A stretch of 64,000 bases of DNA from Candidatus Doudnabacteria bacterium RIFCSPHIGHO2_12_FULL_48_16 (GCA_001780035.1 MFEY01000004.1:81405-145404), one strand, 5' to 3'. Counted from the first letter of the stretch, positions 45,173-62,700 are shown. The notes: generated from the letters alone by a model not told the origin. Made by a program: numbers and translations.

Positions 45173-45190
45173 ATGATTTTCTTTTTAGAT

Positions 45191-45230
45191 CTCCCCTCCC
45201 CTGACGAGGGGAGGGGGTCGGGGGTGGGGT
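45191..45230. repeat. GC-rich hairpin element (family C-like)
   Basis: CTCCCCTCCCCT-gac-GAGGGGAGGGGG followed by TCGGGGGTGGGGT. Confidence 0.55.
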
Positions 45231-45234
45231 CAAT

Positions 45235-45783
45235 TTAATTTATAATAAGCATAAACTCTTCGGATTTCAGATGGCGGTCCAGAATCGATTCCACGAAATC
45301 CACTACCGCGCTGTGGGACTGGGCCTGCTTAGGCGAACCAAAGCCCAAATCTTGAGCCAGGTTCAGCGCAAAGTTGTCGATCAGATCATGGCCGTGGATC
45401 TGTTCCGCCTTATCCAGCTCCTGCAGGAAATTTTTCAACAGCTCAAAGGCCTGCTCGTTGGGATGCTCATCCGCGGTCATCTTGAGCATCAGCTCCGCGG
45501 CATAGAACGCCACCGCCGCTTTTTTTAGATCTTCGCGCAGGCTGCCGAACTGCCGGATGGATTTGACGCCAATCAGAGTTGCCAGGCCGTGATGGCCGGC
45601 TAGGTCAATCTCGCAAATCCCCAAGTCGGCCAAGCAAAAATTTAGTTTGCTTTTAAGCAGACGCACGCCGCGCGCTAGGGCCCGCACTTTGCCCGCCTGT
45701 TTGGTCCAGAGCGTTAAAATTTGATCCGCCTCGCGGTAATTTTGTTTTTTTAAAATAATGCCTGTTAGTTTTTTGTATTTCAT
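45235..45783 (-). CDS. recO: DNA repair protein RecO (short form)
   Basis: N-terminal OB-fold pattern GIILKKQNYREADQILTLWTKQAGKVRALARG. Confidence 0.55.
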   Translation of the reverse strand: MKYKKLTGIILKKQNYREADQILTLWTKQAGKVRALARGVRLLKSKLNFCLADLGICEIDLAGHHGLATLIGVKSIRQFGSLREDLKKAAVAFYAAELMLKMTADEHPNEQAFELLKNFLQELDKAEQIHGHDLIDNFALNLAQDLGFGSPKQAQSHSAVVDFVESILDRHLKSEEFMLIIN

Positions 45784-45790
45784 AGTGTTA

Positions 45791-45903
45791 TTCCCCTCCC
45801 CTCCCCTCCCAGGGGAGGGTGGCCGGAGGCCGGGTGGGGTAGTTTATATAAGCTACCTCTCTGTCGCTTCGCGACATCTCTCCTGAAAGGAGAGATGAAC
45901 TGC
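45791..45903. repeat. composite hairpin element: family C tail followed by family B head
   Basis: CCCCTCCCAGGGGAGGGTGGCCGGAGGCCGGGTGGGGTAGTTTAT followed by TATAAGCTACCTCTCTGTCGCTTCGCGACATCTCTCCTGAAAGGAGAGATGAACTGC. Confidence 0.6.
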
Positions 45904-45910
45904 CACTAAA

Positions 45911-48900
45911 CTATTCTAATTTTAGAGATATCTTCTTGCCATCCACGTCAATTTCCGTCCCGCCGGATTCTTTCACCATCTTCGAAATATACTTCTTTTT
46001 GGTATCAATCAACTCCATTGCTGCGGCTAAATCCGAGTCATCTGTATTATAACTCAATGTTACCGGTTGCCCAACTTTAAACCCGAGCTTTTTGCGCATT
46101 TCCTGCACCGCGCGGGTAAGTTCCGCTGCCAGGCCTTCCTGCTTGAGTTCTGAAGTAATGTTTAGATCAAATTCCAGCTTGTCCCCTGCTTTGACGGCTT
46201 TGACGTTCAATTCGTCCGCGAGAATTTCTTCAAACTCTTGGGCCAGTTGCTTGCCTGAATAACCAAACGAATTCAACGGCTGGCGCAGTTTGATGTTCGC
46301 CGCCTTGCGCAAAGAGTGCCCCTGCTCCACCAGATCCCGCACCATTTGCATTTGATTCAAGACTGCTGTTTGATCTGGGGTCAATTCCAATTGCTCCGGC
46401 CATTTGGCCAAGTGAACCGATGGCACTTCCAGACGGCGGTTAAGATTTTGATATATCAGTTCTCCGAGATAAGGCATGGTCGGGGCGATAACTTTGGCCA
46501 ATGTCAGCAGGGCGTGGCGCAAGGTGCCAAAAAAATGAGCATCTTTGCGGCCGCGACTTCTGCGCAGATACCAAGTTGATAATTCATTGATGTAATTTTC
46601 AATCGCGCGCGTGGCTTTAACCGTATTGTAACCATCGAGCTGATCGGTAACTTCATTCACAAGCTCTTGAGTTTTGGCCACGATCCAAAGATCAAGAACT
46701 GATTTGAAATTTGAAATTTGAAATTTGAAATTTTTCTCAGGTTCCCAACCCGCCTCGTTGGCATAAGTCACGAAGTAATTAAACACATTCCATAGGATCA
46801 AAATATTCTTGCGGTAAATTATGCCCAATTCCCGTTCGCTGAAATTCAAATCCTCGGCCTGCATGACCGGCGAATTCATCAGGTAAAACCGCAGGGCGTC
46901 GACCCCGTATTTTTCGATCATCAGCCACGGATCCGGATAATTGCGCTTGGATTTGCTCATCTTCGCCCCATCCTCAGCCAGGATCGTGCCAGTGGTCAGG
47001 ATATTTTCAAATGGCGCAGAATTGAACAAAATCTGGGCCATGACATGCATGACGTAAAACCAGGCCCGGGTTTGGGGCAAGTATTCCACGACAAACTGCC
47101 CGGGAAACCGGCTCTTAAAAATTTCTCCTTGGGCGAACGGATAGTGATATTCGGCAAACGGCATGGAACCGGCTTCAAACCAGGAGTCAAAAATTTCGCT
47201 GATGCGATGGGCCGGCTGGCCACATTCTTTGCATTTGATCACAACTTCATCAATATATGGCCGATGCAAATCCAGAATGCTGACATCAATCTCATAAATC
47301 TTATCAGTGTGGTTATTCGGATTCTCCTGTTCCGAGCCATAATGCTCCAACAACACCCATAAGGGGTCGCCGTGACCCACGACCACTATGCGTTTGCCTT
47401 CGTATTTTTGATTAATTTCATTCACGAACGCCACCATTCGCTGTTGCACCTGGGTCAGCGTTTCGCCGCCTTCCGGCGCTTCTTTCCAAATATCATGATG
47501 CGCAATATAATCATAAAATTCTGAGACCGGCCGATTGTCATAAATGCCGGTGTCGTATTCACGCAAGCGGGCATCTGTCATTACCGGAGCCCCTAAGTGC
47601 TTACCGATAATTTCGGCGGTGGATTTGGTGCGTAAAAAATCCGAGGAAAAAATTAAATCGACGCCACCTCTGTCTTTGAGGCCTTGGGTGACTTTTTCAG
47701 CATTCTCGAATCCCTTGTCCGTCAAAGGGTATTTATCCGTTTCGAGTTTAGTGCTACTGACCCGCAATGTATTTTTGGTGGATTGTCCATGGCGCACAAA
47801 ATAAAACGTATTTCGGTTCAGACCAAGATCTTTGATGGATCCCACTACATTCACATGTCCGACTTCGCACTTCCAGACCGGAATCGGATTGCCCCAGTAG
47901 CGGTTGCGGGAAATATTCCAGTCCGGCGCGGCTTCCACGGATTTCTGGTAGCGGCCATGCTTAAGATGGTCAGGATACCAGTTCATCTGCGCCTCGTTGG
48001 TGCGCAACAAATCCGGTTTCACTTTCTGCACATTTACAAACCAGGCCGGAATGGCATTGTAGAACAGCGCCGTGCCGCAACGCCAGCAGTGCGGATACGA
48101 GTGCTGGTGCTGCTGTTTGGCAAACATCAATCCCCTGGCTTCCAAATCTTTCTTGATTGTTTTTTCCGCCGCTTTGAAATACTGACCCCGGATCAAACTT
48201 GGCGCGTTATCGTTAAAAATGCCTTTTTCGTCCAAAAGCGGGACAACCGGCAGGCCTTCTTTAAGCCCCAAATTGTAATCGTCTTCGCCATAAACCACAG
48301 CCGTGTGCACCACGCCGGTGCCATCTTCAATATTAACAAAATCCGCGGCGTAGACTTTGTAAGATTTGTCCGAGTGAACCGCCGGCACGTCGAACAGGGG
48401 CTCATAGGAGAGACCGACAAGTTCTGAACCCTTAAACGGAAAATCGAGAATCGAGAATCGAGAATCGGGGTGCAATTTCATGAGATCGTTCACCCGATCT
48501 TTAGCCAAGAGATAAACCTCCTGATTCATTTTTACCTTCACATAATCAATATCCTTACCAACGGCGAGAGCTACGTTACCGGGTAGAGTCCATGGTGTTG
48601 TGGTCCAAGCCAATATAAAAGTATTAACGAATTTCGGATTACGAATTGCGAATTTTACGGTCACCGCTTCTTCCGTCACATCCCGGTAGCTATTATCCAT
48701 AGCAACCTCAAAGTTGGACACCGGCGTTTCGCAGCGCGGGCAATACAGCAGCACCTTGCGGCCTTCGTAAATCAAACCCTGCTCGTAAACCTGTTTGAAC
48801 GCCCACCAAACGGATTCCATATAATCCCGATCCATGGTCTTGTAGGAATTGTCGAACTCCACCCAGCGCGCGATCCGCCGGATGGTTTTGCGCCACTCGG

Positions 48901-49285
48901 CGACATACATCAGCACCATACTGCGGCAGGTTTCGTTGAATTTCTTGATGCCCAACTGTTCGATCTGCTTTTTGCCGGAAATTTTGAGTTCGCGTTCGAC
49001 AATTTCTTCGATCGGCAGGCCGTGGCAATCCCAGCCCCAGCGCCGCCGGACAAACCGGCCCTGCATCGTCTGATAGCGCGGGATTGCGTCTTTGACGACC
49101 GACGGCAAAATGCTACCGTAGTGCGGCAGGCCGGTGGCAAACGGTGGGCCATCATAAAAAGTATAAGGTTTCCCTTGTTTGGTTTGCTCCAGGGATTTCT
49201 GAAAAATCTGGTTGTCCTCCCAAAACTTCAGTATCTCTTCTTCCAGTTTCGGAAAATCTGGCTTTGGTTGTATTGGGTTAAACAT
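45911..49285 (-). CDS. ileS: isoleucyl-tRNA synthetase, carrying an inserted histidine-phosphatase (PGM-like) domain and several short-repeat insertions
   Basis: HIGH-type motif PPFATGLPHYGSIL, KMSKS, and an anticodon-binding C-terminus. The segment of about 176 aa from FYFVRHGQS to VVVGHGDP (residues about 493-668) matches GpmB/SixA-type histidine phosphatases. Confidence 0.9.
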   Translation of the reverse strand: MFNPIQPKPDFPKLEEEILKFWEDNQIFQKSLEQTKQGKPYTFYDGPPFATGLPHYGSILPSVVKDAIPRYQTMQGRFVRRRWGWDCHGLPIEEIVERELKISGKKQIEQLGIKKFNETCRSMVLMYVAEWRKTIRRIARWVEFDNSYKTMDRDYMESVWWAFKQVYEQGLIYEGRKVLLYCPRCETPVSNFEVAMDNSYRDVTEEAVTVKFAIRNPKFVNTFILAWTTTPWTLPGNVALAVGKDIDYVKVKMNQEVYLLAKDRVNDLMKLHPDSRFSILDFPFKGSELVGLSYEPLFDVPAVHSDKSYKVYAADFVNIEDGTGVVHTAVVYGEDDYNLGLKEGLPVVPLLDEKGIFNDNAPSLIRGQYFKAAEKTIKKDLEARGLMFAKQQHQHSYPHCWRCGTALFYNAIPAWFVNVQKVKPDLLRTNEAQMNWYPDHLKHGRYQKSVEAAPDWNISRNRYWGNPIPVWKCEVGHVNVVGSIKDLGLNRNTFYFVRHGQSTKNTLRVSSTKLETDKYPLTDKGFENAEKVTQGLKDRGGVDLIFSSDFLRTKSTAEIIGKHLGAPVMTDARLREYDTGIYDNRPVSEFYDYIAHHDIWKEAPEGGETLTQVQQRMVAFVNEINQKYEGKRIVVVGHGDPLWVLLEHYGSEQENPNNHTDKIYEIDVSILDLHRPYIDEVVIKCKECGQPAHRISEIFDSWFEAGSMPFAEYHYPFAQGEIFKSRFPGQFVVEYLPQTRAWFYVMHVMAQILFNSAPFENILTTGTILAEDGAKMSKSKRNYPDPWLMIEKYGVDALRFYLMNSPVMQAEDLNFSERELGIIYRKNILILWNVFNYFVTYANEAGWEPEKNFKFQISNFKSVLDLWIVAKTQELVNEVTDQLDGYNTVKATRAIENYINELSTWYLRRSRGRKDAHFFGTLRHALLTLAKVIAPTMPYLGELIYQNLNRRLEVPSVHLAKWPEQLELTPDQTAVLNQMQMVRDLVEQGHSLRKAANIKLRQPLNSFGYSGKQLAQEFEEILADELNVKAVKAGDKLEFDLNITSELKQEGLAAELTRAVQEMRKKLGFKVGQPVTLSYNTDDSDLAAAMELIDTKKKYISKMVKESGGTEIDVDGKKISLKLE

Positions 49286-49299
49286 GAGTTTGGCTTTAT

Positions 49300-49410
49300 C
49301 TATAACTCCCTCGCTAACGCTGTATCTGACGCACCCCCTCTTACATTAAGAGGGGGTAAGACAGCATCTGCCCCTCCCCTTAATGTAAGGGGAGGCTGGG
49401 AGGGGTTATA
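49300..49410. repeat. TIR-flanked double-hairpin element, family A copy 1
   Basis: TATAACTCCC...CCCCCTCTTAcatTAAGAGGGGG...CCCCTTAatgTAAGGGG...GGGAGGGGTTATA. It lies in the ileS leader. Confidence 0.7.
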
Positions 49411-49608
49411 ATTCTTAGTTAAAAAATAAAAACAAATAAAAGCCTTGTTGTTTTGCGATCCCTTCCGCCGGCTGGCGGAGGGAGGTACCATCGCAATTCC
49501 TTTTGGCTCTTAATTCTGCTCTTTACGCCGAGCGCGCGGTAGGCTTCGCATCCGGTTGATAGCCGGCATCGCCTTTAACCTCCATATTATAGCAAATTGG
49601 CCAAAATT

Positions 49609-49636
49609 AAACACCCCACATGGGTGCGGGGTGTTT
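49609..49636 (-). terminator. Rho-independent terminator
   Basis: Minus sense reads AACACCCCGCACCCATGTGGGGTGTT followed by TAATTTT. Confidence 0.5.
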
Positions 49637-49649
49637 AAAATCTTATATA

Positions 49650-50405
49650 TTACGATTGGGCAAAAGCGGCCTTCAAATTTTGCCGGGCGGTTTCCAGAGC
49701 GGCCTTGAATGCCTGGTTGGCATCCCGCACCGCCTGGTTGCGGGTTTGGGTCAAATTCTTAATTTGCCCACCCAGCTTGTCCAGGTCTTTGTTGGCCTGC
49801 TGAAATTTATCTTTCGCCGCCTGCTGGGCGCTCATAAGTGTCCGGCGCACGGTGGCGGGATCAACCGAAGCGGCGCAATCGGTTTTGGCTTTGGCCATAG
49901 CCGCCGCAACATCGGCCTTAAACGTGGTGGCATTGGCTTTGATGGCATCCTGCCGTTTGGTAACCAGACTTTCCTGACTGGTGCGGAAATCCGCCATCGC
50001 TTTATCGACGGCGGCTTTGCGCACCTCTTGCGCGGCCGCAACGGCAGCCCTAAACGCGGCTAGGGCCGAGAGCTGCGCCTCGGTCAGAGCGTCGGATTCC
50101 AAATCGGAAAGGCGTTCATCCAAATCGGCTTTGGCCTGGTCGCGTTTTTCCTGAACCTGTTTCACACGACTCTCTTTGCGCTCCTTAAGCTGATTGAACA
50201 CCTCCGTTCGCTTACTGCCCCGATCCTGATCGACTTTGACCAGTTTGGAATTGACTTCACCGGTAACGTTGGCAATCCGGGTGCAGAAATTTTTGGCATC
50301 CGAAGCTGGGGCGGTCGGTTTGTCTTCGCGGGCCAGGCCCAGCGCCGGGGTCAGAATGAATCCCAGGGTCGCCAGAATCAAACTGAAATTTTTAATAGTT
50401 CGCAT
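49650..50405 (-). CDS. secreted coiled-coil protein
   Basis: Signal peptide (MRTIKNFSLILATLGFILTPALGLA), then an Ala/Lys/Gln-rich helical sequence. Confidence 0.4.
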   Translation of the reverse strand: MRTIKNFSLILATLGFILTPALGLAREDKPTAPASDAKNFCTRIANVTGEVNSKLVKVDQDRGSKRTEVFNQLKERKESRVKQVQEKRDQAKADLDERLSDLESDALTEAQLSALAAFRAAVAAAQEVRKAAVDKAMADFRTSQESLVTKRQDAIKANATTFKADVAAAMAKAKTDCAASVDPATVRRTLMSAQQAAKDKFQQANKDLDKLGGQIKNLTQTRNQAVRDANQAFKAALETARQNLKAAFAQS

Positions 50406-50640
50406 TGGTCGCTCCTTCATAGTCGTTAACGATCGTCTGGTCGGAATTTATGACATCGTCATCGGACTGTAAATTAACTGCTTCTTCGCTATCCACGCTC
50501 GCATTAAGGTTGCTGACCGCGGCGTCCACCCGGCTCGCCGAGTTGGATTCCGTGGAATTGCCGGTGCTGGCTTGGTTGCCGGCATTGCAGGCGGCCGCCA
50601 GCAGCATTAACCCGGCGGTTAAAAACAGAATTTTTTTCAT
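50392..50640 (-). CDS. small lipoprotein-like secreted protein
   Basis: MKKILFLTAGLMLLAAAC lipobox. Confidence 0.4.
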   Translation of the reverse strand: MKKILFLTAGLMLLAAACNAGNQASTGNSTESNSASRVDAAVSNLNASVDSEEAVNLQSDDDVINSDQTIVNDYEGATNANY

Positions 50641-50702
50641 AAATCTCTAGTTAATGACATTTCAATTATATCACATAATGAAACGGCCTAACGGCAGCAA
50701 TG

Positions 50703-50987
50703 TTACATCCCGCACCTTTTTGCTTGGAGAATACTGTTTTCGAGTCTGATCTTAAGTTCACTTAAGCCCTTACCGTGATGTTTAAGTTTCTTTTCTCTGG
50801 CTGCCGCATCATCCACCGAAAGGTATGCTTCGTAATAAATTAAGTGCCAGGGACCAAACTTACTAGTGAATCCGTTCTGGCCAGAGTTATGTTCAAATAT
50901 CCTTCTGTCCAAATCGTTAGTGATACCAACATAAAATTTTCTTTTCGCGGATGGTTCCAGATTATACAGAATATATGTATAGTACAT
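50703..50987 (-). CDS. GIY-YIG nuclease family protein (UPF0213-like)
   Basis: YYTYILYNLEPSAKRKFYVGITNDLDRRIFEHN...AAAREKKLK. Confidence 0.7.
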   Translation of the reverse strand: MYYTYILYNLEPSAKRKFYVGITNDLDRRIFEHNSGQNGFTSKFGPWHLIYYEAYLSVDDAAAREKKLKHHGKGLSELKIRLENSILQAKRCGM

Positions 50988-51005
50988 CGCAAAAAAAGTG
51001 CGGGA

Positions 51006-52652
51006 TTACATTTCCTCGAGGGCTTGAATCCCCAATAACTCCAAGCCTTTGCCCAGTGTATTTTTGGCTTTGGCAATCAAAGCCAGGCGGAAATTTTTTA
51101 CAGTTTGGTCTTTTTCGGACAGAATATGGCTTTCGTGGTAAAACTTGTTGATCAAACCGGCCAAATTATACAGATAATTGGCCAGGATATTGGGCAGATA
51201 ATCCGCCAGGGTATCGTCAACAATTTCGGACAGGATAGAAAGCTTAAACAAAAGCTCCCTTTCGGTATTTGAAATTTGGGATTTGGGATTTATTTGAAAT
51301 TTGGGATTTGTAATTTGAGATTTCTTCAATATGCTAGAGAGTCTAGCATAGGCATATTGCAAATACGGGCCACTGTTCCCTTCGAAATCCAAAACTTCTT
51401 CCCAGCTAAACTCAATGTCACTGTGACGGTTGTGTTTGAGGATAAAATATTTCAACGCGCCTTTGGTCACGGCCTTAATTACACCTTGTTTATCCTTTAA
51501 ATCCGGATTTTTCTCCGCAATGACTTGCGCCACTTTTTCTTCGGCCTGAGCAATTACATCCAAAGCCAAAATCATATTCCCCTTACGGGTCGAGAGCGCT
51601 TCACCTTTGAAACTGACAAAGCCATAATCAATATGCGCGCCTTCTCCCTCTTCGATTTTTTCCATTCGGTGCAGGATGGCAAACAGCTGCTTATAATGAT
51701 GCGACTGCCGGTTATCGACAACATATAAGTGTTTTTTGAATCCCTCTTTTTGCGCAAATATAAAGGTTGCCAAATCGCGTAATAAATAAGTCGTGCCACC
51801 GTCAGATTTCACAATCACAGCTATTCCAAGTTTCTGTTGTTCAAGATTAACAATCCTCGCTCCCCGCTCTCCGGTTTGCAAAATATCCTTGCTTTCAAGT
51901 TCGGTAAGCACCCCGGGCATTTTGTCTTCGTAAAAACTTTCCGGCCAGTGATGATCAAACGGCAAGATATCCATCAGTTGATTGATCTGCAAAAACTGCT
52001 TCACGCTGTCCTCGACCAAGTCCTGCCAGATTTTTCGATTCTCCTGATCACCCTGTTCCAATTTCACGAACTCTTGCTTCGCTGACTCGTGAATCGACGG
52101 ATCTTTTTCTGCCTCTTGGTTAAGTTGAGCGTAGATTTTCTCGTTCACTTTGCCGAATTTTTTGACAGCCAAAATCAAAAATCCAAATTGCGTGCCCCAA
52201 TCCCCCATATGGGTATCGGATTCCACTTTTTCTCCAACAAACAGCAACATGCGCTTGATTGCATCGCCAATAACCGCAGTTTCCAAATGGCCGATATGAA
52301 GAGGCTTGGCAATGTTGGGCTGGAAGTATTCGAGGAGGATCTTCTCCGAGCGCTGAGGGTTGAGCGCTGAGGGTTGAGTTAACAACTCGTTGTTCTTTAA
52401 GCGAAAATTGATAAATCCCGGCCCGGCTATTTCCACAGTTTCAAACATAGCCTTATCCATTTTCTCAATCAAATTTTTGGCCACATCCTGCGGTTTTTGC
52501 TTTGACAATTTGGCCCAAACCAACGCGGCATTGGTGGCATAATCGCCAAACTTCGCATCCGGATATGTCAGATCAAAGTTAAATTCGGCTGACGCTGGTC
52601 CCATCGCCGTCTGGATGATTTGTTTGATCTTTTCGCGCATTAGCATGAGCAT
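51006..52652 (-). CDS. argS: arginyl-tRNA synthetase
   Basis: HIGH motif PNIAKPLHIGHL, a DALR anticodon-binding C-terminus, and an in-frame low-complexity insertion KKSQITNPKFQINPKSQISNT. The start was placed at an internal Met because the annotated N-terminus overlaps repeat A2. Confidence 0.85.
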   Translation of the reverse strand: MLMLMREKIKQIIQTAMGPASAEFNFDLTYPDAKFGDYATNAALVWAKLSKQKPQDVAKNLIEKMDKAMFETVEIAGPGFINFRLKNNELLTQPSALNPQRSEKILLEYFQPNIAKPLHIGHLETAVIGDAIKRMLLFVGEKVESDTHMGDWGTQFGFLILAVKKFGKVNEKIYAQLNQEAEKDPSIHESAKQEFVKLEQGDQENRKIWQDLVEDSVKQFLQINQLMDILPFDHHWPESFYEDKMPGVLTELESKDILQTGERGARIVNLEQQKLGIAVIVKSDGGTTYLLRDLATFIFAQKEGFKKHLYVVDNRQSHHYKQLFAILHRMEKIEEGEGAHIDYGFVSFKGEALSTRKGNMILALDVIAQAEEKVAQVIAEKNPDLKDKQGVIKAVTKGALKYFILKHNRHSDIEFSWEEVLDFEGNSGPYLQYAYARLSSILKKSQITNPKFQINPKSQISNTERELLFKLSILSEIVDDTLADYLPNILANYLYNLAGLINKFYHESHILSEKDQTVKNFRLALIAKAKNTLGKGLELLGIQALEEM

Positions 52653-52685
52653 AGTATATCTGATAAAATTAACGCAGACAATAAT

Positions 52686-52792
52686 TATAACTCCCCCGCG
52701 AACTCTCAGTTGACGCACCCCCTCTTACATTAAGAGGGGGTGGAGTAGCGGCTGCTCTCCCCTTAATGTAAGGGGAGGGTGGGAGGGGTTAT
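52686..52792. repeat. TIR-flanked double-hairpin element, family A copy 2
   Basis: Same architecture as 49300-49410. It lies between the argS start and smpB. Confidence 0.7.
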
Positions 52793-52803
52793 TTTTCCTC
52801 CCT

Positions 52804-53253
52804 ATGCCTTCCCTCGCCAACAACCGCAAAGCTTTCCATGATTACTCGATCGAATCCACGCTCGAGGCCGGCTTGGTCTTGGCCGGCCATGAAGTCAAAA
52901 GCATCCGCAACGGGCAGGTCTCGCTCAATGGCGCCTATGTCACGATCCGCCTGGGCGAAGCCTGGCTGCGCAATGCGTATATTGGCAAATACAAACAAGC
53001 CTCGGGCCTGGAGGGCATCGATGAATCCCGCGAACGAAAGCTGCTCCTCAATAAACACGAGATCATTAAACTGCAGGATCTGCTCAAATCCAAAGGCTTA
53101 ACTCTGGTGCCGCTGGAAATTTACACATCCAAGGGGCGGCTGAAATTAAAAATCGGCGTCGGAAGAGGCAAAAAGCAATTCGACAAGCGCGAATCGATAA
53201 AGAAGAAAGAACTTAAAAGAGGCTTGGATAGAAAGATGAGGACGCGGGTATAA
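52804..53253 (+). CDS. smpB: SsrA-binding protein SmpB
   Basis: NRKAFHDYSIE...AGLVLAGHEVKSIRNGQVSLNGAYV. Confidence 0.9.
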   Translation: MPSLANNRKAFHDYSIESTLEAGLVLAGHEVKSIRNGQVSLNGAYVTIRLGEAWLRNAYIGKYKQASGLEGIDESRERKLLLNKHEIIKLQDLLKSKGLTLVPLEIYTSKGRLKLKIGVGRGKKQFDKRESIKKKELKRGLDRKMRTRV

Positions 53254-53727
53254 CTACCTCTCTGTCGGCTTCGCCGACATCTCTCCTGGAAGGAGAGATG
53301 AACTGCAGGTTAATTAAATATATGAAACTGCTTGAAAATTTAATTTTGGGTTCCCGGAGTTTAAGAAAAAACCAAACGCCTTGGGAAAATAAACTTTGGT
53401 ATAATCTCAGAGCCAAAAGATTTAAAGGATACCGTTTCCGAAGACAATTTGTTATTGGTTACTATATAGTTGACTTTTGCTGCTTTGAAAAGAAACTAAT
53501 TATAGAATTAGATGGGGGCCAACACAACGAAGAACAAACTCAACTAAATGATAAAGAAAGAACCGAATTTCTGAAATCACAAGGCTTCAAAGTAATAAGA
53601 TTTTGGAACAATGATATTCAAAAAAATCTCCCGGAAGTTTTAGAAACTATATTAGATAACTTGAAATAAAAAAATCCCCTCCCCTTCCAGGGGAGGGTGG
53701 CGCGAAGCGCCGGGTGGGGTAGTTATT
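53250..53727 (+). mobile_element. TIR-bounded element of about 478 bp carrying a DUF559 endonuclease gene (family B head, gene, family C tail)
   Basis: TATAACTACCTCTCTG (left) and GGGGTAGTTAT (right) are inverted repeats. A gene-less B+C version sits at 54316-54429. The element's first bases overlap the smpB stop codon. Confidence 0.5.
53322..53669 (+). CDS. DUF559 endonuclease-domain protein (Vsr/restriction-endonuclease-like fold)
   Basis: LRKNQTPWENKLWYNLRAKRFKGYRFRRQFVIGYYIVDFCC...IELDGGQHNEE. An alternative start lies at 53298, inside the repeat. Confidence 0.65.
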   Translation: MKLLENLILGSRSLRKNQTPWENKLWYNLRAKRFKGYRFRRQFVIGYYIVDFCCFEKKLIIELDGGQHNEEQTQLNDKERTEFLKSQGFKVIRFWNNDIQKNLPEVLETILDNLK

Positions 53728-53730
53728 ATT

Positions 53731-53757
53731 CTGGTGGAGCTGGGGAGAATTGCACTC
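53731..53757. repeat. 27-bp exact direct repeat of the tmRNA 3' end (the second copy, 53886-53912, is part of ssrA)
   Basis: CTGGTGGAGCTGGGGAGAATTGCACTC occurs identically twice, 128 bp apart. Confidence 0.8.
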
Positions 53758-53886
53758 GTTCGCGCTTATGCGCTCACCTCGGGGCAGCGCCGAAAGCTAT
53801 TAATACGCTTTCGTCGACGCTCGACTTCGGCTGATGCCTCGTCTCGCTTCTGCCCGGAGTGCAATCAATGTGCTTTATTAAATTCC

Positions 53887-54271
53887 TGGTGGAGCTGGGG
53901 AGAATTGCACTCCCGTCCAAAAATTTTTGGCAAACACGTCTACAAGCTTAGACCGCTTTATGGTGTCCCCCAAGCAATAGAAGCGGACCAAAGCTGCTTG
54001 AGGTGAGCTCTAAGTGTCTTTTGGCTGTCGAGCACCGGCCAAAATGAGTCCGGATAATATAACACCTGTGATCCGCGCACAGACTTTACGGAGCAGATGG
54101 GTTATCGCTTAATTAAGCAACAGCCAGAGCAGGAGAGAATGCAAAAGCATTCTTAATTCTGCTTACCAATGAATTGGCATTTATGATTTGCCTTATTTTT
54201 TTAACCGAGAAATTAGGCTAATCGGACTTGCGGTATCTGTCAAAGAACTCTTGTCGAAGCTTAGCAGCCCC
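53887..54271 (-). ncRNA. ssrA: tmRNA (ssrA)
   Basis: Minus-strand 5' end GGGGCUGCUAAGCUUCGACAAGAG and 3' end GGACGGGAGUGCAAUUCUCCCCAGCUCCACCA (T-arm plus acceptor with a G3-U pair). An internal tag-like ORF ends ...SPALAVA-UAA. It is adjacent to smpB. Confidence 0.75.
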
Positions 54272-54281
54272 TCGTCAAAGC

Positions 54282-54310: not shown

Positions 54311-54315
54311 GCTTT

Positions 54316-54429
54316 TTAATTACCTCTCTGTCGGCTTCGCCGACATCTCTCCTGGAAGGAGAGAATAAACTGCTGATTTGCCCTCCCCTTCCAGGGGAAG
54401 GTGCCGCGAAGCGGCGGGAGGGTAGTTAC
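54316..54429. repeat. gene-less B+C double-hairpin element (a MITE-like derivative of the 53250-53727 element)
   Basis: The family B hairpins (GTCGGCttcgGCCGAC, TCTCTCCtggaaGGAGAGA) and the family C hairpins (CCCTCCCCTtccAGGGGAAGG, GCCGCGAAGCGGC) are directly joined, flanked by ...TTAATTACCTC and GGTAGTTAC. Confidence 0.65.
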
Positions 54430-54483
54430 TCTTTACAAAAACTGTATTTTCCTCTATAATTACTGCGTATTAAACATAAACCG

Positions 54484-54999: not shown

Positions 55000-55074
55000 T
55001 GATTCGAATTAGGAATCAGGAATTAGGAATAACGGGGCCCTAATTCATAATTCATTATTCATAATTCCTTTTAC

Positions 55075-55260: not shown

Positions 55261-55334
55261 AGATTAAAAATTGCGGATTACGCATTACGGATTAATTCGT
55301 AATCCGAAATCCGTAATTAACTAATTAAACAATT

Positions 55335-55679
55335 ATGACCAGAGTCAAACGCGGCGTTGCCGCCCACAAGCGACGCAAATATTTTCTCAAACGCACCAAA
55401 GGGTTTACCAACCGCCGGTCCACCAACGCAATCGCGGCCAAGGAAGCCTTGCTGCATGCTGATTCTTACACCTATGCCCACCGCCGGCTGCGCAAGCGGG
55501 ATTTAAGAAAACTCTGGACGATCCGGACCAATGCCGCCAGCCGCGAACACGGCATGACGTTCAGCAAGCTGATGGGCAGCCTGCGCAAGCAGCAAATCGG
55601 CATCAACAAAAAAATGCTGGCCGAGCTAGCCGTCCGCCACCCGGAAGTGTTTGAAAAAATCGTCGCTTCGGTTAAGTAA
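55335..55679 (+). CDS. rplT: 50S ribosomal protein L20
   Basis: MTRVKRGVAAHKRRKYFLKRTKGF...LRKLWTIRTNAA. Confidence 0.9.
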   Translation: MTRVKRGVAAHKRRKYFLKRTKGFTNRRSTNAIAAKEALLHADSYTYAHRRLRKRDLRKLWTIRTNAASREHGMTFSKLMGSLRKQQIGINKKMLAELAVRHPEVFEKIVASVK

Positions 55680-55687
55680 GCTTGGAG

Positions 55688-55813
55688 TATAACTCCCCCG
55701 CTGACTCCTTTATGACGCACCCCCTCTTATATTAAGAGGGGGTTTTAAAAAACCTGTCTTTCCTCCCCTTAAAATAAGGGGAGGTGGCGCGTTAGCGCCG
55801 GAGGGGTTAATAT
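55688..55813. repeat. TIR-flanked double-hairpin element, family A variant (loops TAT/AAAA, extra GCGCGTTAGCGCC hairpin). It doubles as the rplT terminator.
   Basis: CCCCCTCTTAtatTAAGAGGGGG is followed by TTTTAAAAAA. Confidence 0.65.
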
Positions 55814-55819
55814 ATAGGC

Positions 55820-56518: not shown

Positions 56519-56521
56519 ATA

Positions 56522-56630
56522 TATAACTCCCCCGCAAACGCTTGATCTAACGCACCCCCTCTTACATTAAGAGGGGGTAAGATAGCAGTTGCTCCTCCCC
56601 TTAATGTAAGGGGAGGCTGGGAGGGGTTAT
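56522..56630. repeat. TIR-flanked double-hairpin element, family A copy 4
   Basis: Same architecture as the other family A copies. Confidence 0.7.
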
Positions 56631-56709
56631 TTTCCAACCAACCGAAAACCGCCTGGGCTTTTCCCGAGGCGGTTTTCGTAATTCCTAATTCGTACTTCGT
56701 AATTCGATT

Positions 56710-59160
56710 CTATTTCACTCCCGCGATAACCTGGTCGATATCGGCGGTATCTTGCTTGTTGGCGACCAGAATTTCTCGCACTTTTTCGAATGCGCTAAGC
56801 GCCTTGGCCTTATCCCCTTTTTGCTGATACGCTAGCCCGAGGCTGTAGTGAGCATTGGCGTATTCGGCATTCAAAGCCACCACTTTCTGGAAAATTCCGA
56901 TAGCTTCATCGTAATTTTTCTGATTGTAGGTGAGGCGACCTTGTTCAAACAAGACGTCCGGGTTAGTCGGGAACAGCCCGGCGGCTTCATCCATTTTCTT
57001 TTTGGCTTCCTCGGCTCTTTGGTCGGCTTCCAAAACGCGCGAGAGCTGGATGTAGAATTCCGGCAGATCATTTTTCAGTTCTATCGCCTTATTTAGCTCG
57101 GCCACCGAATGCTTGATCATTTCCGGATCGATTTTGGTCGGCTGATTGCCATTGGCGTCCGGCTCTTTGGAACTATCAGCCACATTGGCGGCGCCAAAGT
57201 AAGCCTGGCCCAATTGATAGTGCAGCGCCGGATTGTTGGGATCATGCTCAATCGCCGATTTGAGCGAACTAATGACATATTGATCGGCGCCGGCAGCCAA
57301 GGGCTTGATGTCGGCGTAAAACTGCGCCAAGGCCTGCCAGTTGGATGCTTTGGCCGGAGAAATCTGCACGGCCAGTTGGCCGGCTTTGATCAATTCGCTC
57401 ATTAGATTCTGGATTAGATTGGCGTCCGGTTTGGGCTTAGACCCTTCTTCCTGGGCGCGCAAGATTATGCTTTGACCGTAAGTCAGATAATAGACGTCCC
57501 GGTAAGGATTCAGACTGATGGCGCGGGCGAACTGGTTGGAGAGCGCCGTCGGGTCCGGTTTTTCCCGGTTAGCTTGCTTGATGCCGGTGGCGTAGGCGAC
57601 TTCTCCGCCATAAATCGTGGCTTCAAAGAACGCTCCGATCAGAATGGCCGCCAGCAAGAGGAGGGAAACGAACATCCACGATAGCGCAGCGCGAGGCGAC
57701 GATGACATGGACATGGGCGATGATTCCAATTCGCTTTCTTCCCCGCTCATGTGAGCCATAGCCATAAAGACGCCGAGCGAGAGCCAGTAAAGGAAATAAA
57801 ACGTCGCGTTGAAAAAATAGAAGAAGTGAGCGATATAAAGCGCGAGCCAGACGACGAAAAAGCCAAAAGCGTGCTTCCAGCCGACATGCTCGGCTTTTTT
57901 GAGCAAGAAATACAACCCATAAACCAGGAACAGTAGGCTTAAGAGCTCGAACACCAGCAGGCCCAAAATGCCGGTTTCAATGGCGATATTGCCGATCTCG
58001 GACGACGCCCGGTCAAAATTCAGGCTCCAGACAATCGTCTTGTTCAGTTCCGGCGGTTTGATCTGACCAAAAACAATTCCGGTGGTGCCAGGGCCCGAGC
58101 CGAGGATCGCGCTTTTGGCCCCTTCTTTCATGGAGTTGCCAACCAGGGTCCAAGTGGTGGAATTGGATAACTGCACTTCCACCGGCAGGTCAATGTTGAC
58201 CAGGTTGCGGGGGTTAACGGCCGCCGGCAAAAATTGGAACGAAATGAACAAAACGCTGATGACCAGCATGACCATGGGTTTCCAAAACCAGGTCGGCGAG
58301 GATTGATGCTCCCCCTGGATTGCCATGGAGATGGCGAGGAACGCGACCATAGCCAGGCCCAAGACCAGCCAGGCGACAAAGGCGTTGATCAAAAACAAAA
58401 TTGCCAGAGAGACCAAGGTCAGCAGCCACAACATGGCGGTTTTGACCCGGCCCCGGCTGCTACCCATGAAGAACATCCATTGGACAAACACGACAGAGAC
58501 CGCGCTAAAGATCGCCAAACCCACCTGGCTGCCGATGGGATTGAATCCGCGGTTATGGGTAAAGGCCGCTGGCAGAAGATAAATCCCCAACAGCTGGAAC
58601 AAACTGTATACCAAAACGATGCCGGAGCCGAGCAAAAAATAGTTGGTGAGCCGTTTGATTGTCTGTTCCCGTTTCAAGTTGTTGACGATCACGAAGTAAA
58701 ACAAGACCAGGCTGAGGACAGAAATGAAACTACCGGAAAACCGGCCATAATAGCCCAGAAAAGACGAGACCTTATCAATCGACATCAGGCTGGTGAGCAG
58801 GTAAACGCCCAGGTAGGCCAAGAGGATATAATCAAGCGACGTTTTGACCCAGGAGACAGACCGGGTAGTTAAAATTTTAATGACCCAGACAGCCAGCATA
58901 AGGACGACGCCGAAAAAGATCAAGGTCAGTTTGTTGAAGTCGCGGACTTCGGTGGTTAAGGAAGTAAACAGCACCGGCACCAGCAGAACCAAGGCATAGA
59001 GACAGAAATTAATGATCTTGTGGAACCGCGAAAAATCCACAGTCTGGGCGGCCGCCGCCGCATGGCCGGAAGCATGCTGAACCAGGTTGTGGTGGTCAGC
59101 GGCTGGCCCGCCTAGACTCGCGCTAGGCGAGGCTGGTTTGCGCTTCATAAAATCGAGCAT
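56710..59160 (-). CDS. O-antigen ligase/polymerase-like polytopic membrane protein with a C-terminal TPR domain
   Basis: A Wzy_C-like domain of about 12 TM helices, followed by TPR repeats (YHLGQAYFGAAN..., AHYSLGLAYQQKGDKAKA). Confidence 0.55.
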   Translation of the reverse strand: MLDFMKRKPASPSASLGGPAADHHNLVQHASGHAAAAAQTVDFSRFHKIINFCLYALVLLVPVLFTSLTTEVRDFNKLTLIFFGVVLMLAVWVIKILTTRSVSWVKTSLDYILLAYLGVYLLTSLMSIDKVSSFLGYYGRFSGSFISVLSLVLFYFVIVNNLKREQTIKRLTNYFLLGSGIVLVYSLFQLLGIYLLPAAFTHNRGFNPIGSQVGLAIFSAVSVVFVQWMFFMGSSRGRVKTAMLWLLTLVSLAILFLINAFVAWLVLGLAMVAFLAISMAIQGEHQSSPTWFWKPMVMLVISVLFISFQFLPAAVNPRNLVNIDLPVEVQLSNSTTWTLVGNSMKEGAKSAILGSGPGTTGIVFGQIKPPELNKTIVWSLNFDRASSEIGNIAIETGILGLLVFELLSLLFLVYGLYFLLKKAEHVGWKHAFGFFVVWLALYIAHFFYFFNATFYFLYWLSLGVFMAMAHMSGEESELESSPMSMSSSPRAALSWMFVSLLLLAAILIGAFFEATIYGGEVAYATGIKQANREKPDPTALSNQFARAISLNPYRDVYYLTYGQSIILRAQEEGSKPKPDANLIQNLMSELIKAGQLAVQISPAKASNWQALAQFYADIKPLAAGADQYVISSLKSAIEHDPNNPALHYQLGQAYFGAANVADSSKEPDANGNQPTKIDPEMIKHSVAELNKAIELKNDLPEFYIQLSRVLEADQRAEEAKKKMDEAAGLFPTNPDVLFEQGRLTYNQKNYDEAIGIFQKVVALNAEYANAHYSLGLAYQQKGDKAKALSAFEKVREILVANKQDTADIDQVIAGVK

Positions 59161-59177
59161 TTGGTTTGGTTTTCTTC

Positions 59178-59228
59178 ATCTTAGAACTCCCCTCTCCCGC
59201 TCCGGGAGAGGGGCCGGGGGTGAGGGTA
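59178..59228. repeat. GC-rich hairpin element, family D copy 2
   Basis: TTAGAACTCCCCTCTCCC-gctcc-GGGAGAGGGGCCGGGGGTGAGGGT. It is a paralog of 11209-11258. Confidence 0.6.
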
Positions 59229-59306
59229 ATCTAAAATTTAATATTTTTAATAGTTATTAACAGCTATTTCTCCCCAATAATAGCAAATTTTAATAGATTT
59301 GGGAAT

Positions 59307-59790
59307 TATAACTCCCCCGCTAACCCTCAGCTGAGGCACCCCCTCTTACATTAAGAGGGGGTGAACTGCAGATTAATTCTTTGGGCAGTATTCTAAGATT
59401 TTGTCGTATATCCCGTCGATATTTTCTATTACCTCATTATTCCAAAATCTTAATTCTCTAATATCGTTAGCTAATAAATAAGCCGTTCTTTCCTGATCAT
59501 ATTCTTTTTGTTCATCAGCGTGCTGACCTCCATCTAACTCAATGGCTAACCTCAATTCGGGACAATAAAAATCGAGAATATAATACCCGACGCTATATTG
59601 CCTTAAAAATTTATAGTCATTGCATTGTTTATTTCTTAGTACCTTCCAAAGTAACGATTCACAATCAGTTTGATTTTTTCTTAACTGCTGTCTTCGTGAT
59701 TTAATTTTCGGGTTGTTATATATTAGCTTCATCTTTGCGTTAGATGGCAGTTAACCCTCCCTTAATGTAAGGGAGGGTTAGGGTGGGTTA
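59307..59790. mobile_element. Family A element split by a DUF559 gene: a roughly 484-bp putative full-length copy of the family A double-hairpin element
   Basis: The left half is TATAACTCCCCCGC...GCACCCCCTCTTAcatTAAGAGGGGGT (59307-59362). The DUF559 gene lies at 59373-59732. The right half is AACCCTCCCTTAatgTAAGGGAGGGTTAGGGTGGGTTAT (59751-59790). Confidence 0.5.
59373..59732 (-). CDS. DUF559 endonuclease-domain protein
   Basis: LRKNQTDCESLLWKVLRNKQCNDYKFLRQYSVGYYILDFYC...IELDGGQHADEQ. It is a paralog of 53322-53669. Confidence 0.65.
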   Translation of the reverse strand: MKLIYNNPKIKSRRQQLRKNQTDCESLLWKVLRNKQCNDYKFLRQYSVGYYILDFYCPELRLAIELDGGQHADEQKEYDQERTAYLLANDIRELRFWNNEVIENIDGIYDKILEYCPKN

Positions 59791-59792
59791 TT

Positions 59793-62700
59793 TTACGGTG
59801 CTACTGGCTCCCCTGCCTCGCCAGCAGGCAGGTCGGCCGGCGGTGGGGTACCAGAATCAGCTGATGGGGTCACATCTTCTCCGCTTGGCAACTCTGAACT
59901 GGTTTCAGAGTCCCCGGTTTGAGATCCTGCCTGCCCGCCGGCTTGTCCGTCCGTAGTTTCAACGGAGGCGGAAGCGTCAGATGAAGGCTGGGATTCCTCT
60001 ACCGGCGGCTCTTCTGCAGGCGGAGTTTCTTCTCCCCCGCTCGTGCTGTCCCCGGAAACTGTTCCCTGTTCGCTGTTATCTGTCGTCTGACTATTCAAGC
60101 CCGCGTTCTGCAACAGCGTCTGCAACTGATTCTTGTCGATACAAACATCTTCCAGGCAGAGCCGCACGGCCACGATGGTGCCGTCCTCGCCAATGCTCCA
60201 CTTTCCTTGCAAGCCGGCAATGGATTTGACGTTGACGAACGCATGGCCGTTGCCGTCCAGATCCTGGGCCAGACTGATTAGCTGGCCGGAGAGATCCTGC
60301 GCCACATCGATATGCTGATAGCCGAGATTAACAAAAACCAAAACTGAATCTAATCCTTCTGTGCCACCCTGTGAATCTTCCAAAGCAATACCAATGGATT
60401 GGCCCGATTCGGTCATCTTGGCGGCGTATCCTGGCAATTGACTGGAAACAGTCAGCCGATCACCGGCATGGATCTGGCCGTTTTCTTCGGAAACCTTCAC
60501 CGGCACGCGACCAACTAAGGCCACGGGTTTTTGCAGGGCAAGTTTCCCCGGATTTTTCCAATCATAATTCATGACCGGACCCGGGGCCGTGGAAATTACC
60601 CCGATAAGCGTATGAGCGCCGGTGGCTGGGGCCACGGCAAAGCCATCGTCATTCGAGCTGGTGGCCACCATTTCCACAACCTCCCCGGGCTGGGGCGAGC
60701 CTTGGGTGTAATACATTTCGGCGACGTCGGCGGGAGTGGAATAGACATTGGCATCAGAATAGACTGAGCCGTCAGCCGTGATCTTAAAGTGCACAGTATC
60801 CACCCCGGAACCGACCGTGGAATCGGATTCAATGGAGAAGACGGATTGGGCGTCCGTGGATTCTTCAGTATTGATGTAGATACCTTCCAGGTTAGCGGCA
60901 TCGGTTTGGTTAATGACTAATTTACCGGTAGTCGGGCTGGTTTCCCCAATCCCGACGTTGCCGGCGCCTGTAATATGCATCGCTTCTGTTAGAACTCCCG
61001 CGTTATATGTCCGCAATCGCAATGCCGTCGTGCCTGAACTGTCCGAACGACGAGCTTGTAGGTAAGTGATATCACCTCCGGAAATAGGTACCATGTAGAT
61101 ATTGCCTACGGCATAGAATGCGCCGCTAGCGTTAGTGCCACTATCCGCTAACCAAATATCCCCGGAGCTATCAACATCTAATTTCCCCCTAGGGCTCGTG
61201 CTCCCGATGCCGACATTGCCGCCTAAGAAGGCCGCGGCGTAGTTGGCGCCAGCCCCGGTCGGAGTATTCACAGTTAAGCCATAGGCATTAGTCGCGGTCG
61301 AGACAGCGGTGACAGGAACTAAAATACCATGCGAGTTTGTAATGGCTACATTTGTGGACTTGATGGGGTTGGCTACGATTAAGCCTGCGGCATCAGTTAC
61401 GGTCTGGTTGGCATTGGTGCCGACCAGAGTCATGGCACCAATCTGGGCGCCGTAGAAAGTAGCGTAAGTGGTAGGGTCAGCGCCGGAAAGAGTAACTGTG
61501 TGGGCTCTTTGAGTGATACCGGAGACTCCCGCGGCGGCAAAGGTGCCAGTGGAGAGAATATCCAGCTTGGATGCGGGAGCAGTGGTGCCAATGCCGACGT
61601 TGCCGCCATTTAAGATTGTAAGGACTCCACTGCCTGCTCCGGAAGTGCCCAAACGCAAATTATTTCCAGTGGCGGCGTTTACGTCAGTATTTGTGCCGTC
61701 CACTGTGATACTAAACCTTGTGGCAGCTGTAGCGGCAGCGCCAATTCTGAATGCTTCACCTGTGACATCCGCACCCAGAGATAGGTGTAATTTAGTGCCT
61801 GGAGTCGTCGTCCCGATGCCGACGAGGCCGGCGGAATCGATTGTCATCCGCGTGCCCGTACCAGCAGCGCCGTCAGTCTGGAACAAAAGTTTGGAATAAG
61901 CGCTTGTGGCATGATCGTATTGTGCCACAATACCGGCTTCTATTGAGCTGGCTCCCATCAATGAAATCTTGGCGTAATCAGTATTGGCGGCTTGGGTTAC
62001 CAAACCTTGAGTTCGACTGACCGCACGAGTGGTGGTGGAAGATGAATATACGTGCAATAATTGAGCTGGATTCGTCGTCCCGATGCCGACGTTGCCCCCT
62101 AAGAACGCCGCCGCATAGTTGTTGGTAGCGCCAGTGGAAGCATTTACTGTCAGGCCGTAAGAATTAGTGGCGGTAGAAACAGCAGTAGCGGGAATCAAAA
62201 TTCCGTGAGTATTGGTAAGAGCCACATTCGTAGATTTAATCGGGTTGGCTACAATTAGTCCGGCCGCATCTGTGACGGTCTGGTTGATATTAGTGCCTAC
62301 TAAGGTCACAGCACCAATCTGGGCGCCGTAGAAAGTGGCGTAAGTAGTTGGGTCTGCGCCGGAGAGAGTGATGGTGTGGGCTCGCTGTGTAATTCCAGAA
62401 ACGCCGGCTGCGGCAAAGGTACCGGTGGAAAGAATATCCAGCTTGGAGGCGGGAACGCTAGTCCCAATGCCGACGTTGCCACTTGGAACAATGAAATTTT
62501 CTGTGTCCCGAGGAACCTGCCAAATATTGTGATAAACACTTGAGTAATATGTACGGAATAAAACATCGTCTGTTCCACCTGCTCCATCAATGAGGATTTC
62601 AGCATAGTTATTGTCAGCTCCACCAAGTGTCGAGCCTTGTCTCCAGGCTATACGCGGACTACCACCAGCTACGTCAGAAGATGAAATGATGCCGACTACG

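Follow-up and report, generated by a model that had tools for sequence, protein, structure and literature searches.

The 64,000-nucleotide stretch of Candidatus Doudnabacteria bacterium RIFCSPHIGHO2_12_FULL_48_16 analyzed here (GCA_001780035.1 MFEY01000004.1:81405-145404; below, the window) contains 12 short, strongly folded repeat elements, 11 of which lie between 45 and 60 kb. Two of them are longer and enclose a small gene of the DUF559 nuclease family between the same ends, while gene-less copies of these repeats occupy the surrounding intergenic spaces. To judge from their sequences, the repeats are new variants of a known, unexplained, cross-phylum class (BoxC/PIT/TMECO), and not an invention specific to this genome; an actual triplex is a predicted feature of them. 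We consider it probable that the elements are Patescibacterial variants of this class and represent DUF559 cassettes with derivatives resembling miniature inverted-repeat transposable elements (MITEs), analogous to the REPIN/RAYT system. More tentatively, BoxC, PIT, and TMECO repeats across phyla may be the cognate ends and nonautonomous derivatives of YcjD-like DUF559 cassettes; these would then be a previously unrecognized kind of mobile element, with a nuclease that recognizes hairpin or triplex DNA, running parallel to REPIN/RAYT but with unrelated chemistry. Both propositions build on the anatomy of the repeats, the covariation of their mirrored arms, and their relationship to the gene ends, each of which was observed.

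Results

Two DUF559 genes, each with its own repeat family

An earlier note on this DNA had described four related families (A to D) of miniature elements and nothing longer; the intact DUF559 genes inside the elements at 53249-53726 and 59307-59791 had been missed. For the present analysis, the window was read directly over 45.1 to 60 kb, and repeat, pattern, and hairpin searches, a profile search, and a triplex-motif detector were applied as well. Both open reading frames (ORFs) belong to DUF559 (Pfam PF04480; cut-off, 20.6), with E values of 6e-42 (142 bits) for DUF559_1 and 6e-34 (117 bits) for DUF559_2. The two proteins are 44% identical and retain all invariant residues of the family alignment, in which the motifs ILDF, ELDGGQH, and RFWN are invariant and residues of the D...E-x-D...H type are conserved. 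Because they score 105 and 94 against the NCBIfam YcjD equivalog NF007294, below its cut-off of 218, they are members of the family and not YcjD orthologues. DUF559_2 additionally matches an N. gonorrhoeae protein (PDB 3HRL; E value, 5e-21), and the protein was found at the same locus in 23 contigs, 10 of which were inspected. DUF559 is a family of Vsr-like PD-(D/E)XK nucleases whose function is not known, and YcjD detects Vsr (PMC1189080).

Each of the two paralogues is paired with its own cognate repeat family. The ends of the DUF559_1 element are 98% and 90% identical to the B+C copy at 54317, located 590 nucleotides (nt) away, and those of the DUF559_2 element are 93% and 83% identical to A copies; the orientation of the gene between the two halves differs (plus at 53298, minus at 59373). 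Three A copies have one central junction in common (TAAGATAGCAGTTGCTCC), and this junction corresponds to the sequence that adjoins the start codon of DUF559_2 (TTAGATGGCAGTTAACCC), which argues that the gene-less A form arose by internal deletion of the ORF, once, and was multiplied afterwards. What the longer elements encode is a nuclease that is not known to transpose anything.

One design with a mirrored third arm

The listed copies of all four families were found at, or within a few bases of, the positions previously given, and the families are indeed related, intergenic, bounded by inverted termini, and built from two hairpins. They are, however, variants of one design that is known across phyla. 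Each half of an element comprises a hairpin whose 5' arm is rich in pyrimidines (C-rich) and whose 3' arm is rich in purines (G-rich). Behind the hairpin comes a third arm, a mirror image of the purine arm in which G faces G and A faces A or T. A purine-motif triple helix that folds back on itself in single-stranded DNA obeys this mirror rule, with G.G-C, A.A-T, and T.A-T triads (PMC4666352). A pyrimidine-motif (C+.G-C) triplex formed via the 5' arm was also considered, but the presence of A and T in D-type arms spoke for the purine-motif reading in the literature. In every half the stem is perfect, at 8 to 11 bp, and loops measure 3 to 8 nt. A detector based on the mirror rule covers every half of families A, B, C, and D, calling the left halves on the minus and the right halves on the plus strand.

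When the A copies are aligned, stems and arms do not vary but loops and linkers do, in agreement with the loop-only differences reported before. The left end is homologous to the right end when inverted, with compensatory changes distinguishing the hairpins of the two (GTCGGC..GCCGAC versus GGCGCG..CGCGCC, and TCTCTCC..GGAGAGA versus CCCTCCCC..GGGGAGGG). The mini-hairpin GGCGCGTTAGCGCC in the copy at 55688 connects family A with family C. The termini, which follow a mirror rule that a transposase end would not need, are better interpreted as third-strand (mirror) arms. A TATAAC terminus, once attributed to all elements, is present in A, B, and C, whereas D units are without it. The B and C motifs, described as joined at two sites, stand in the order B, then C, at 54317-54429, but the pair at 45793-45904 is permuted (C, then B), with third arms that abut and face each other as in E. 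coli BoxC pairs, so that both permutations occur among the gene-less pairs. Finally, the supposed C-like solo copy at 45191-45230 is actually a third D-type copy (45174-45231).

Variants of the BoxC/PIT/TMECO class

The names given to this class were BoxC (1992), then PIT elements (2000), and then TMECO, with the published TMECO pattern reading CCCTCNCCC N3-6 GGGNGAGGG N3 GGGNGAGGG (Holder et al. 2015, PMC4666352). In vitro, TMECO folds into an intrastrand purine-motif triplex; its copies, found alone or as inverted pairs, mark variable regions and number 23 in E. coli K-12 and 3610 in 262 proteobacterial genomes (PMC4666352). Tests for promoter or terminator activity were negative, the functions of flanking genes showed no correlation with the motif, and Holder et al. 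state that they never came across transposases, integrases, or other functions for mobility in its vicinity (PMC4666352).

The elements of the window share with this class a layout in which a C-rich arm and a G-rich arm enclose a loop and, past a further short loop, a second G-rich arm mirrors the first one. Other common traits are the intergenic, multicopy occurrence as single units or inverted pairs, the conserved stems with variable loops, and the patchy distribution among related genomes. Family D is nearly identical to the E. coli type B sequence (CCCTCTCCC..GGGAGAGGG CCG GGGTGAGGG). The strict TMECO pattern has no match in the window, and one match (59190, family D) is obtained when the second loop is relaxed to 1 to 6 nt. 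Families A, B, and C are variants of the class and not TMECO itself, because they have other stem sequences (CCCCCTCTTA/TAAGAGGGGG, CCTCCCCTTA, TCTCTCC, and CCCTCCCC) and longer second loops, which are often a mini-hairpin or 16 to 21 nt long instead of 3 nt. Moreover, pairs in the window mostly point their third arms outward, in contrast to the inward-facing arms of E. coli BoxC pairs; the host is a Patescibacterium; and the motifs bracket DUF559 genes, whereas no mobility gene was associated with them in the published work. The class is reportedly also treated in Bergler 1992, Bachellier 1996, and Hoyne and Maher 2000. No Rfam family matched the elements at gathering scores or at E values of ≤1.

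Insertion into a conserved gene order

Three syntenic Doudnabacteria relatives, with M24 peptidases that are 64 to 70% identical to that of the window, have the same gene order and no motif in 10 to 20 kb, and empty sites were found in syntenic relatives (L134 to L137) at every position. Since these genomes do without any of them, the elements are lineage-specific insertions. The rplT-M24 spacer measures 0 to 3 nt in the relatives L134 to L136 and 140 nt in the window; recO and ileS, which overlap in L136, are 127 nt apart in the window, where the 45793-45904 pair occupies the entire spacer; and the argS-smpB spacer measures 30 nt in L136 and about 155 nt in the window. The gap that takes up the D-type unit at 45174-45231 (DUF11-recO) is 5 nt long in L136, and in the relatives smpB is followed by a terminator and the transfer-messenger RNA (tmRNA) gene only. 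Similarly, the M24 gene of the relatives is directly followed by its own terminator, whereas the A copy at 56522 is interposed in the window. The A copy at 49301, which separates the conserved ileS leader from the start codon of ileS (the placing of one copy at this leader in the earlier note was right), is absent from the L136 leader. The smpB stop codon falls within the TATAAC terminus of the 53249-53726 element.

The suggestion that several elements double as terminators did not hold up: a terminator scan flags no A copy, the copy after rplT has no T-run, and past the element M24 still has a terminator of its own. The one hairpin flagged, of type C at 53677-53697, is on the strand opposite to the DUF559_1 gene that precedes it.

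The coordinates of all elements are collected in Table 1. The previously described cluster at 45 to 60 kb is real: nhmmer found no copies in 1 to 45 kb beyond the D copy at 11.2 kb, the 10 kb to the left of the window's left end contain one weak motif only, and the elements are therefore strongly clustered, beside the two DUF559 genes. A terminus (TATAACTMCCYC) occurs 7 times in the window versus 0.46 expected in a pattern search, and the triplex-motif detector made 22 calls in the window versus 0.5 in shuffles. With tools that model Watson-Crick pairs only, the double elements reach folding z-scores of -5 to -7 in single-stranded form. These statistics, together with contigs of identical sequence found in many samples, rule out chance or an assembly artifact as an explanation. 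On the plus strand, the five A-type units and the two B-to-C units are all oriented alike, irrespective of which way the neighboring genes run, and the 45793-45904 pair is the only permuted one.

Table 1. Repeat elements and DUF559 genes in the window
Feature	Position	Strand	Description
Family D solo unit	11200-11257	+	19-nt conserved left flank and triplex motif at 11219-11256 (hairpin CCCCTCTCCC/GGGAGAGGGG, CCG, GGGATGAGGG); 90% identical to 59170 copy
D-type solo unit	45174-45231	+	Motif at 45192-45230; between DUF11 gene start and recO end
C-type motif	45793-45847	+	Hairpin, mini-hairpin GGCCGGAGGCC, third arm GGGTGGGGTAGTT
B-type motif	45848-45904	-	Hairpin TCTCTCC/GGAGAGA, mini-hairpin GTCGCGAAGCGAC, arm AGAGAGGTAGC
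Family A gene-less double	49301-49410	+	Motifs at 49304-49356 (-) and 49372-49407 (+); between ileS leader and ileS start
Family A gene-less double	52686-52792	+	Divergent argS-smpB spacer
Gene-carrying element	53249-53726	+	B-type end 53249-53312, DUF559 ORF, C-type end 53672-53726
DUF559_1 ORF	53298-53669	+	123 amino acids from first ATG; likely real start at 53319
B+C gene-less double	54317-54429	+	Between tmRNA gene and infC
Family A variant	55688-55811	+	Right half retains mini-hairpin GGCGCGTTAGCGCC; occupies rplT-M24 spacer
Family A gene-less double	56522-56630	+	Between M24 stop codon and M24's own terminator; 91% identical to 49298 copy
Family D solo unit	59170-59227	+	TMECO-consensus match if second loop is relaxed to 1-6 nt
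Gene-carrying element	59307-59791	+	A-left end 59307-59363, DUF559 ORF (-), A-right end 59752-59791
DUF559_2 ORF	59373-59732	-	119 amino acids

Association of DUF559 genes with the motif across phyla

The association between DUF559 and the motif holds across phyla. Metagenome contigs were searched with a DUF559 alignment (580 of 600 stretches confirmed), and the best 80 loci were used. In this set, a motif lies within 160 nt upstream of the DUF559 gene in 64/76 cases (84%; third arm toward the gene in 60) and within 160 nt downstream in 64/74 (86%; third arm toward the gene in 59), compared with 1/44 and 1/37, respectively, for control ORFs of the same loci. Where both flanks were available, 67 of 70 loci had a motif on at least one side, against a background of 0.18 motifs per kb. 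The two motifs of one gene are inverted repeats, with a likeness of 0.75 versus 0.63 for motifs of different loci. The upstream third arm often provides the ribosome-binding site and ATG (GGGGAGTTATG), and the DUF559 ORF often ends in the downstream hairpin.

From the side of the repeat, a scan for the A-type hairpin in one genome per species yielded at least 120 loci, where about 9 are expected by chance. Among the matches listed, hosts were Desulfuromonadota, Nitrospirota, Desulfobacterota, Pseudomonadota, Dehalococcoidia, Bacillota, and many Patescibacteria. The variable positions of the hairpin covary across loci, and the third arm mirrors the purine arm exactly in 97 of 112 cases from the 120 listed loci, where permutations gave 39 on average and 56 at most; with one case counted per locus and variant, it does so in 79 of 91. 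A DUF559 ORF lies flush against the units in 5 of the 120 listed loci.

Isolates with a motif-flanked DUF559 gene include Deinococcus proteolyticus, where the arm arrangement is the same as in the window, Pseudanabaena, Azospirillum, N. gonorrhoeae (NGO0050), and Picosynechococcus PCC 7002, the motifs of which were read by eye, with stems under the length threshold of the detector. The ycjD ORF of E. coli K-12 extends into a CCCTCTCCC hairpin of degenerate sequence, and TMECO #9 lies about 170 nt from ycjD, in the spacer between fabI (envM) and ycjD. This locus was rejected as a guide to the exact element ends: homology with K-12 stops about 40 nt from TMECO #9 in ~2080 of 5426 complete genomes, and in CFT073 a resistance-nodulation-division (RND) efflux island takes the place of ycjD near TMECO #9. 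The locus is therefore informative about instability, not about element ends. A duplicated fragment of the ycjD 3' end was also seen between ycjD and TMECO #9 (E. coli K-12 1349500-1352500).

Two simple codes for the termini were considered and discarded. Terminal GTTATG does not serve as the start codon of flanking host genes, as the downstream ORF had a median of 18 codons over 75 termini and only DUF559 genes use it; the TGA is part of a longer inverted terminus, TCATAAC...GTTATGA. Nor is TAAC a universal stop codon: the DUF559 ORFs of the loci L043, L048, and L049 read through the arm and stop in the hairpin (..TPPxLPL*). Tandem arrays of units occur at L037 and L048. In the latter (Desulfuromonadaceae, JAQUHA010000012.1, locus positions 2700-4200), a 220-bp tandem array lies within a type I restriction-modification operon; each of its units holds an hsdS 3'-end copy, a motif pair, and a DUF559 5' remnant, and both the hsdS and the DUF559 ORFs end in the hairpin, with the tail ..TPPxLPL*.

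Discussion

How the elements may have arisen and spread

The observations would fit the following course of events. Two motifs on opposite strands that bracket a small DUF559 gene would form a selfish cassette; loss of the ORF by internal deletion would give the double-hairpin copies of ~110 nt, which would then have multiplied locally, and single motifs such as those of family D may be solo remnants. The DUF559 nuclease may recognize the folded hairpin or triplex ends on single-stranded or supercoiled DNA and cut there, after which host repair or recombination would copy the unit to new places in a process resembling homing or gene conversion. We favor such a route over cut-and-paste transposition because a single-domain nuclease of 115 amino acids cannot perform strand transfer and because there is no target-site duplication.

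A number of points weigh against this reading. We know of no demonstrated activity of DUF559 on any substrate, and PDB 3HRL is, to our knowledge, a structural-genomics entry without known function. No defined insertion chemistry was found: when the flanks of all seven bounded copies were read by eye for the target-site duplications proposed earlier as a check, none was consistent across copies, and TA fits only the copy at 49301. The comparison of empty and occupied sites, proposed likewise, turned out positive between species but showed no polymorphism within the population, as 13 population contigs from several samples are 99.9 to 100% identical and show no presence/absence difference or indel at any element. 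As the copies are fixed in the sampled population and 85 to 91% alike, they are old and not currently active. In the other 115 of the 120 listed hairpin loci, the motifs are far from any DUF559 gene, and the 84 to 86% association is limited to this DUF559 subfamily, because the 80 loci are those most closely related to the query alignment. In the window and in Deinococcus, third arms lie distal to the gene, but in most other loci they are proximal, and no single model covers both. E. coli genomes without ycjD at the K-12 locus still carry motif copies, so persistence of the motif does not need the gene. Finally, Holder et al. did not demonstrate a triplex in vivo by dimethyl sulfate footprinting (PMC4666352).

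Alternative explanations

The abundance of motifs without genes would be accounted for if DUF559 were a free-standing, homing-type endonuclease gene that invades preexisting paired triplex motifs, an explanation that we regard as unlikely. The pair would then be the target and not the ends, and the motifs would have spread otherwise, for example, by replication errors at triplex or hairpin DNA or by another enzyme. Homing endonucleases are known among the Vsr-like nucleases (I-Bth0305I, PMC3239194; fractured genes, PMC2677866), both gene orientations between the halves (53298, plus; 59373, minus) are expected for a palindromic target, and the gene-less pairs, in the window as well as among the E. 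coli BoxC pairs (PMC4666352, Table 1), look like uninterrupted targets. However, the arrival of identical gene-less units at new, unrelated sites is left unexplained by such invasion, and the match between the center of the A copies and the sequence beside the gene start argues for their derivation from a gene-carrying copy and not for the reverse. Motifs also covary with their own gene across phyla, although this would equally result from coinheritance. We deem it more improbable still that the elements serve the host as structural or regulatory elements, in the way of repetitive extragenic palindromic (REP) sequences acting as transcript stabilizers, insulators, protein-binding sites, or replication-pausing sites; around DUF559 they would control a toxic nuclease gene, and solo copies would be scars of decayed cassettes. 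The contribution of the third arm to translation initiation and of the downstream hairpin to the ORF end can be read in this way, as can the fixation of the copies in the population, the strong conservation of the stems, and the low folding z-scores (-5 to -7). On the other hand, relatives with the same gene order do without the elements at every site, and some positions would be odd for a host function, with one copy between a gene and its own terminator and another between a leader and the start codon. The terminator scan was negative, and the experiments of Maher and of Holder revealed no promoter, terminator, or expression role (PMC4666352). The deletion junction common to three A copies, moreover, means that these multiplied as gene-less units.

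A very remote alternative is that the repeats act like attC sites, at which a tyrosine recombinase of the integron type would move cassettes. They share with attC sites, which are thought to act as folded single strands, their nature as imperfect palindromes, with ...AAC on the left and GTT... on the right; in other phyla, the ORF lies between the GTTATG and TAAC of neighboring units, as in a cassette array, and tandem arrays exist in L037 and L048. In this genome, however, the elements are scattered singly among housekeeping genes and form no array, D and TMECO types lack the AAC/GTT ends, and the TATAAC...GTTAT(T/A) or GTTAT(G/A) termini do not fit the attC consensus RYYYAAC/GTTRRRY. The arms, furthermore, follow and covary under a mirror rule to which attC sites do not conform. 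The two loci with arrays, L037 and L048, contain no recombinase gene (intI was not searched for across the whole genome), and the latter is a type I restriction-modification operon in which hsdS 3' ends are duplicated.

Comparison with known systems and implications

Taken as DUF559 cassettes with gene-less derivatives, the elements most resemble REPIN/RAYT, in which a single-copy gene is likewise flanked by its own cognate inverted hairpin repeats and gene-less doublets are dispersed in intergenic spaces; two gene paralogues per genome, each with its own repeat family, and slow, largely vertical turnover are further likenesses. Membership in REPIN/RAYT fails because the flanked gene is a PD-(D/E)XK gene of DUF559 (PF04480) and not an HUH Y1 transposase (PF01797); the repeats of the window also carry a third, mirrored arm, and no conserved cleavage tetranucleotide of the GTAG type was identified. 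As to the label "MITE-like" of the earlier note, the gene-less elements are short, noncoding, and multicopy, with terminal inverted repeats, as MITEs are. Like the bacterial MITEs Correia, RUP, and Nezha, they are about 110 nt long and strongly folded, derive by internal deletion from longer, gene-carrying copies, and show insertion polymorphism between related genomes, with empty sites in relatives. The label falls short in that there is no target-site duplication and the parent has no recognizable transposase, only the overlooked DUF559 gene for a nuclease of 115 to 123 amino acids. With Vsr/EDxHD homing endonucleases such as I-Bth0305I, DUF559 has in common a Vsr-like catalytic core and a small, selfish-looking gene of patchy distribution, but it sits in neither an intron nor an intein, lacks a long extension for DNA binding, and has structured repeats as its boundaries instead of being inserted in a conserved host gene.

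In the open-access literature we found no paper linking DUF559 or ycjD to these repeats, which is absence of evidence, and neither the titles and abstracts of papers that contain the title of Holder 2015 (that paper among them) nor a literature search with A-type hairpin sequence strings revealed such a link, which appears to be new. It would give an orphan repeat class, catalogued for three decades, a testable partner protein and would tie to repeats a very large family of small nucleases that has a solved structure and no known role. The analysis also shows that a small (about 1 Mb) Patescibacterial genome absorbed a burst of elements into the spacers of core translation genes.

Other features of the region

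An ORF for a 94-amino-acid GIY-YIG nuclease (50703-50987, minus strand) is bracketed by a 14- to 16-nt inverted repeat (CATCCCGCACCTTTTT / AAAAAGTGCGGGAT; 50707-50722 and 50990-51003). Because it is absent at the syntenic position in L136, it represents a second kind of small nuclease-gene insertion. A GIY-YIG homologue is found about 300 nt from a hairpin unit in a Dehalococcoidia locus (L123).

The tmRNA gene occupies 53887-54271 (minus strand), and an exact 27-nt copy of its 3' end (53886-53912) is located at 53731-53757, 128 nt downstream, adjoining the right end of the DUF559_1 element. This copy resembles the att duplication left by integration into ssrA. A weak, sub-threshold match to the Rfam family tmRNA_permuted was obtained at 53726-53947.

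A separate, AT-rich repeat family has a 7-nt periodicity (ATTTGAA, GAATCGA, GGATTAC, and similar heptamers). Its repeats occur in ileS (46702-46733, 48447-48470, and 48635-48660), in argS (51262-51325), in intergenic positions (55000-55070, 55262-55330, and 56676-56710), and at 18.6 to 36.6 kb, and its palindromes fill the infC-rpmI and rpmI-rplT spacers, which are 2 to 15 nt long in L136. Within the two aminoacyl-tRNA synthetase genes, the repeats are in frame and lie at variable loops (argS has 8 additional residues compared with L136), which recalls the palindromic elements of Rickettsia. The ileS of L136 (1459-4801) was called as two overlapping ORFs (266 and 858 amino acids) that join at the site of the window's heptamer repeat (about ileS residues 263 to 284), reflecting either a split or frameshifted gene or an assembly or calling issue.

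The ileS leader (49420-49640, minus strand) extends over roughly 230 nt, is conserved with L136 (e.g., GGTACC...TTGGCTCTTAATTCTGC), and has a terminator-like run at its end; no T-box or other Rfam match was found in it at E values of ≤1. Finally, 59793-64000 (minus strand) covers the end of a giant gene (about 4700 amino acids) of the NosD/beta-helix type, with internal repeats of 300 nt and of 36 to 49 nt.

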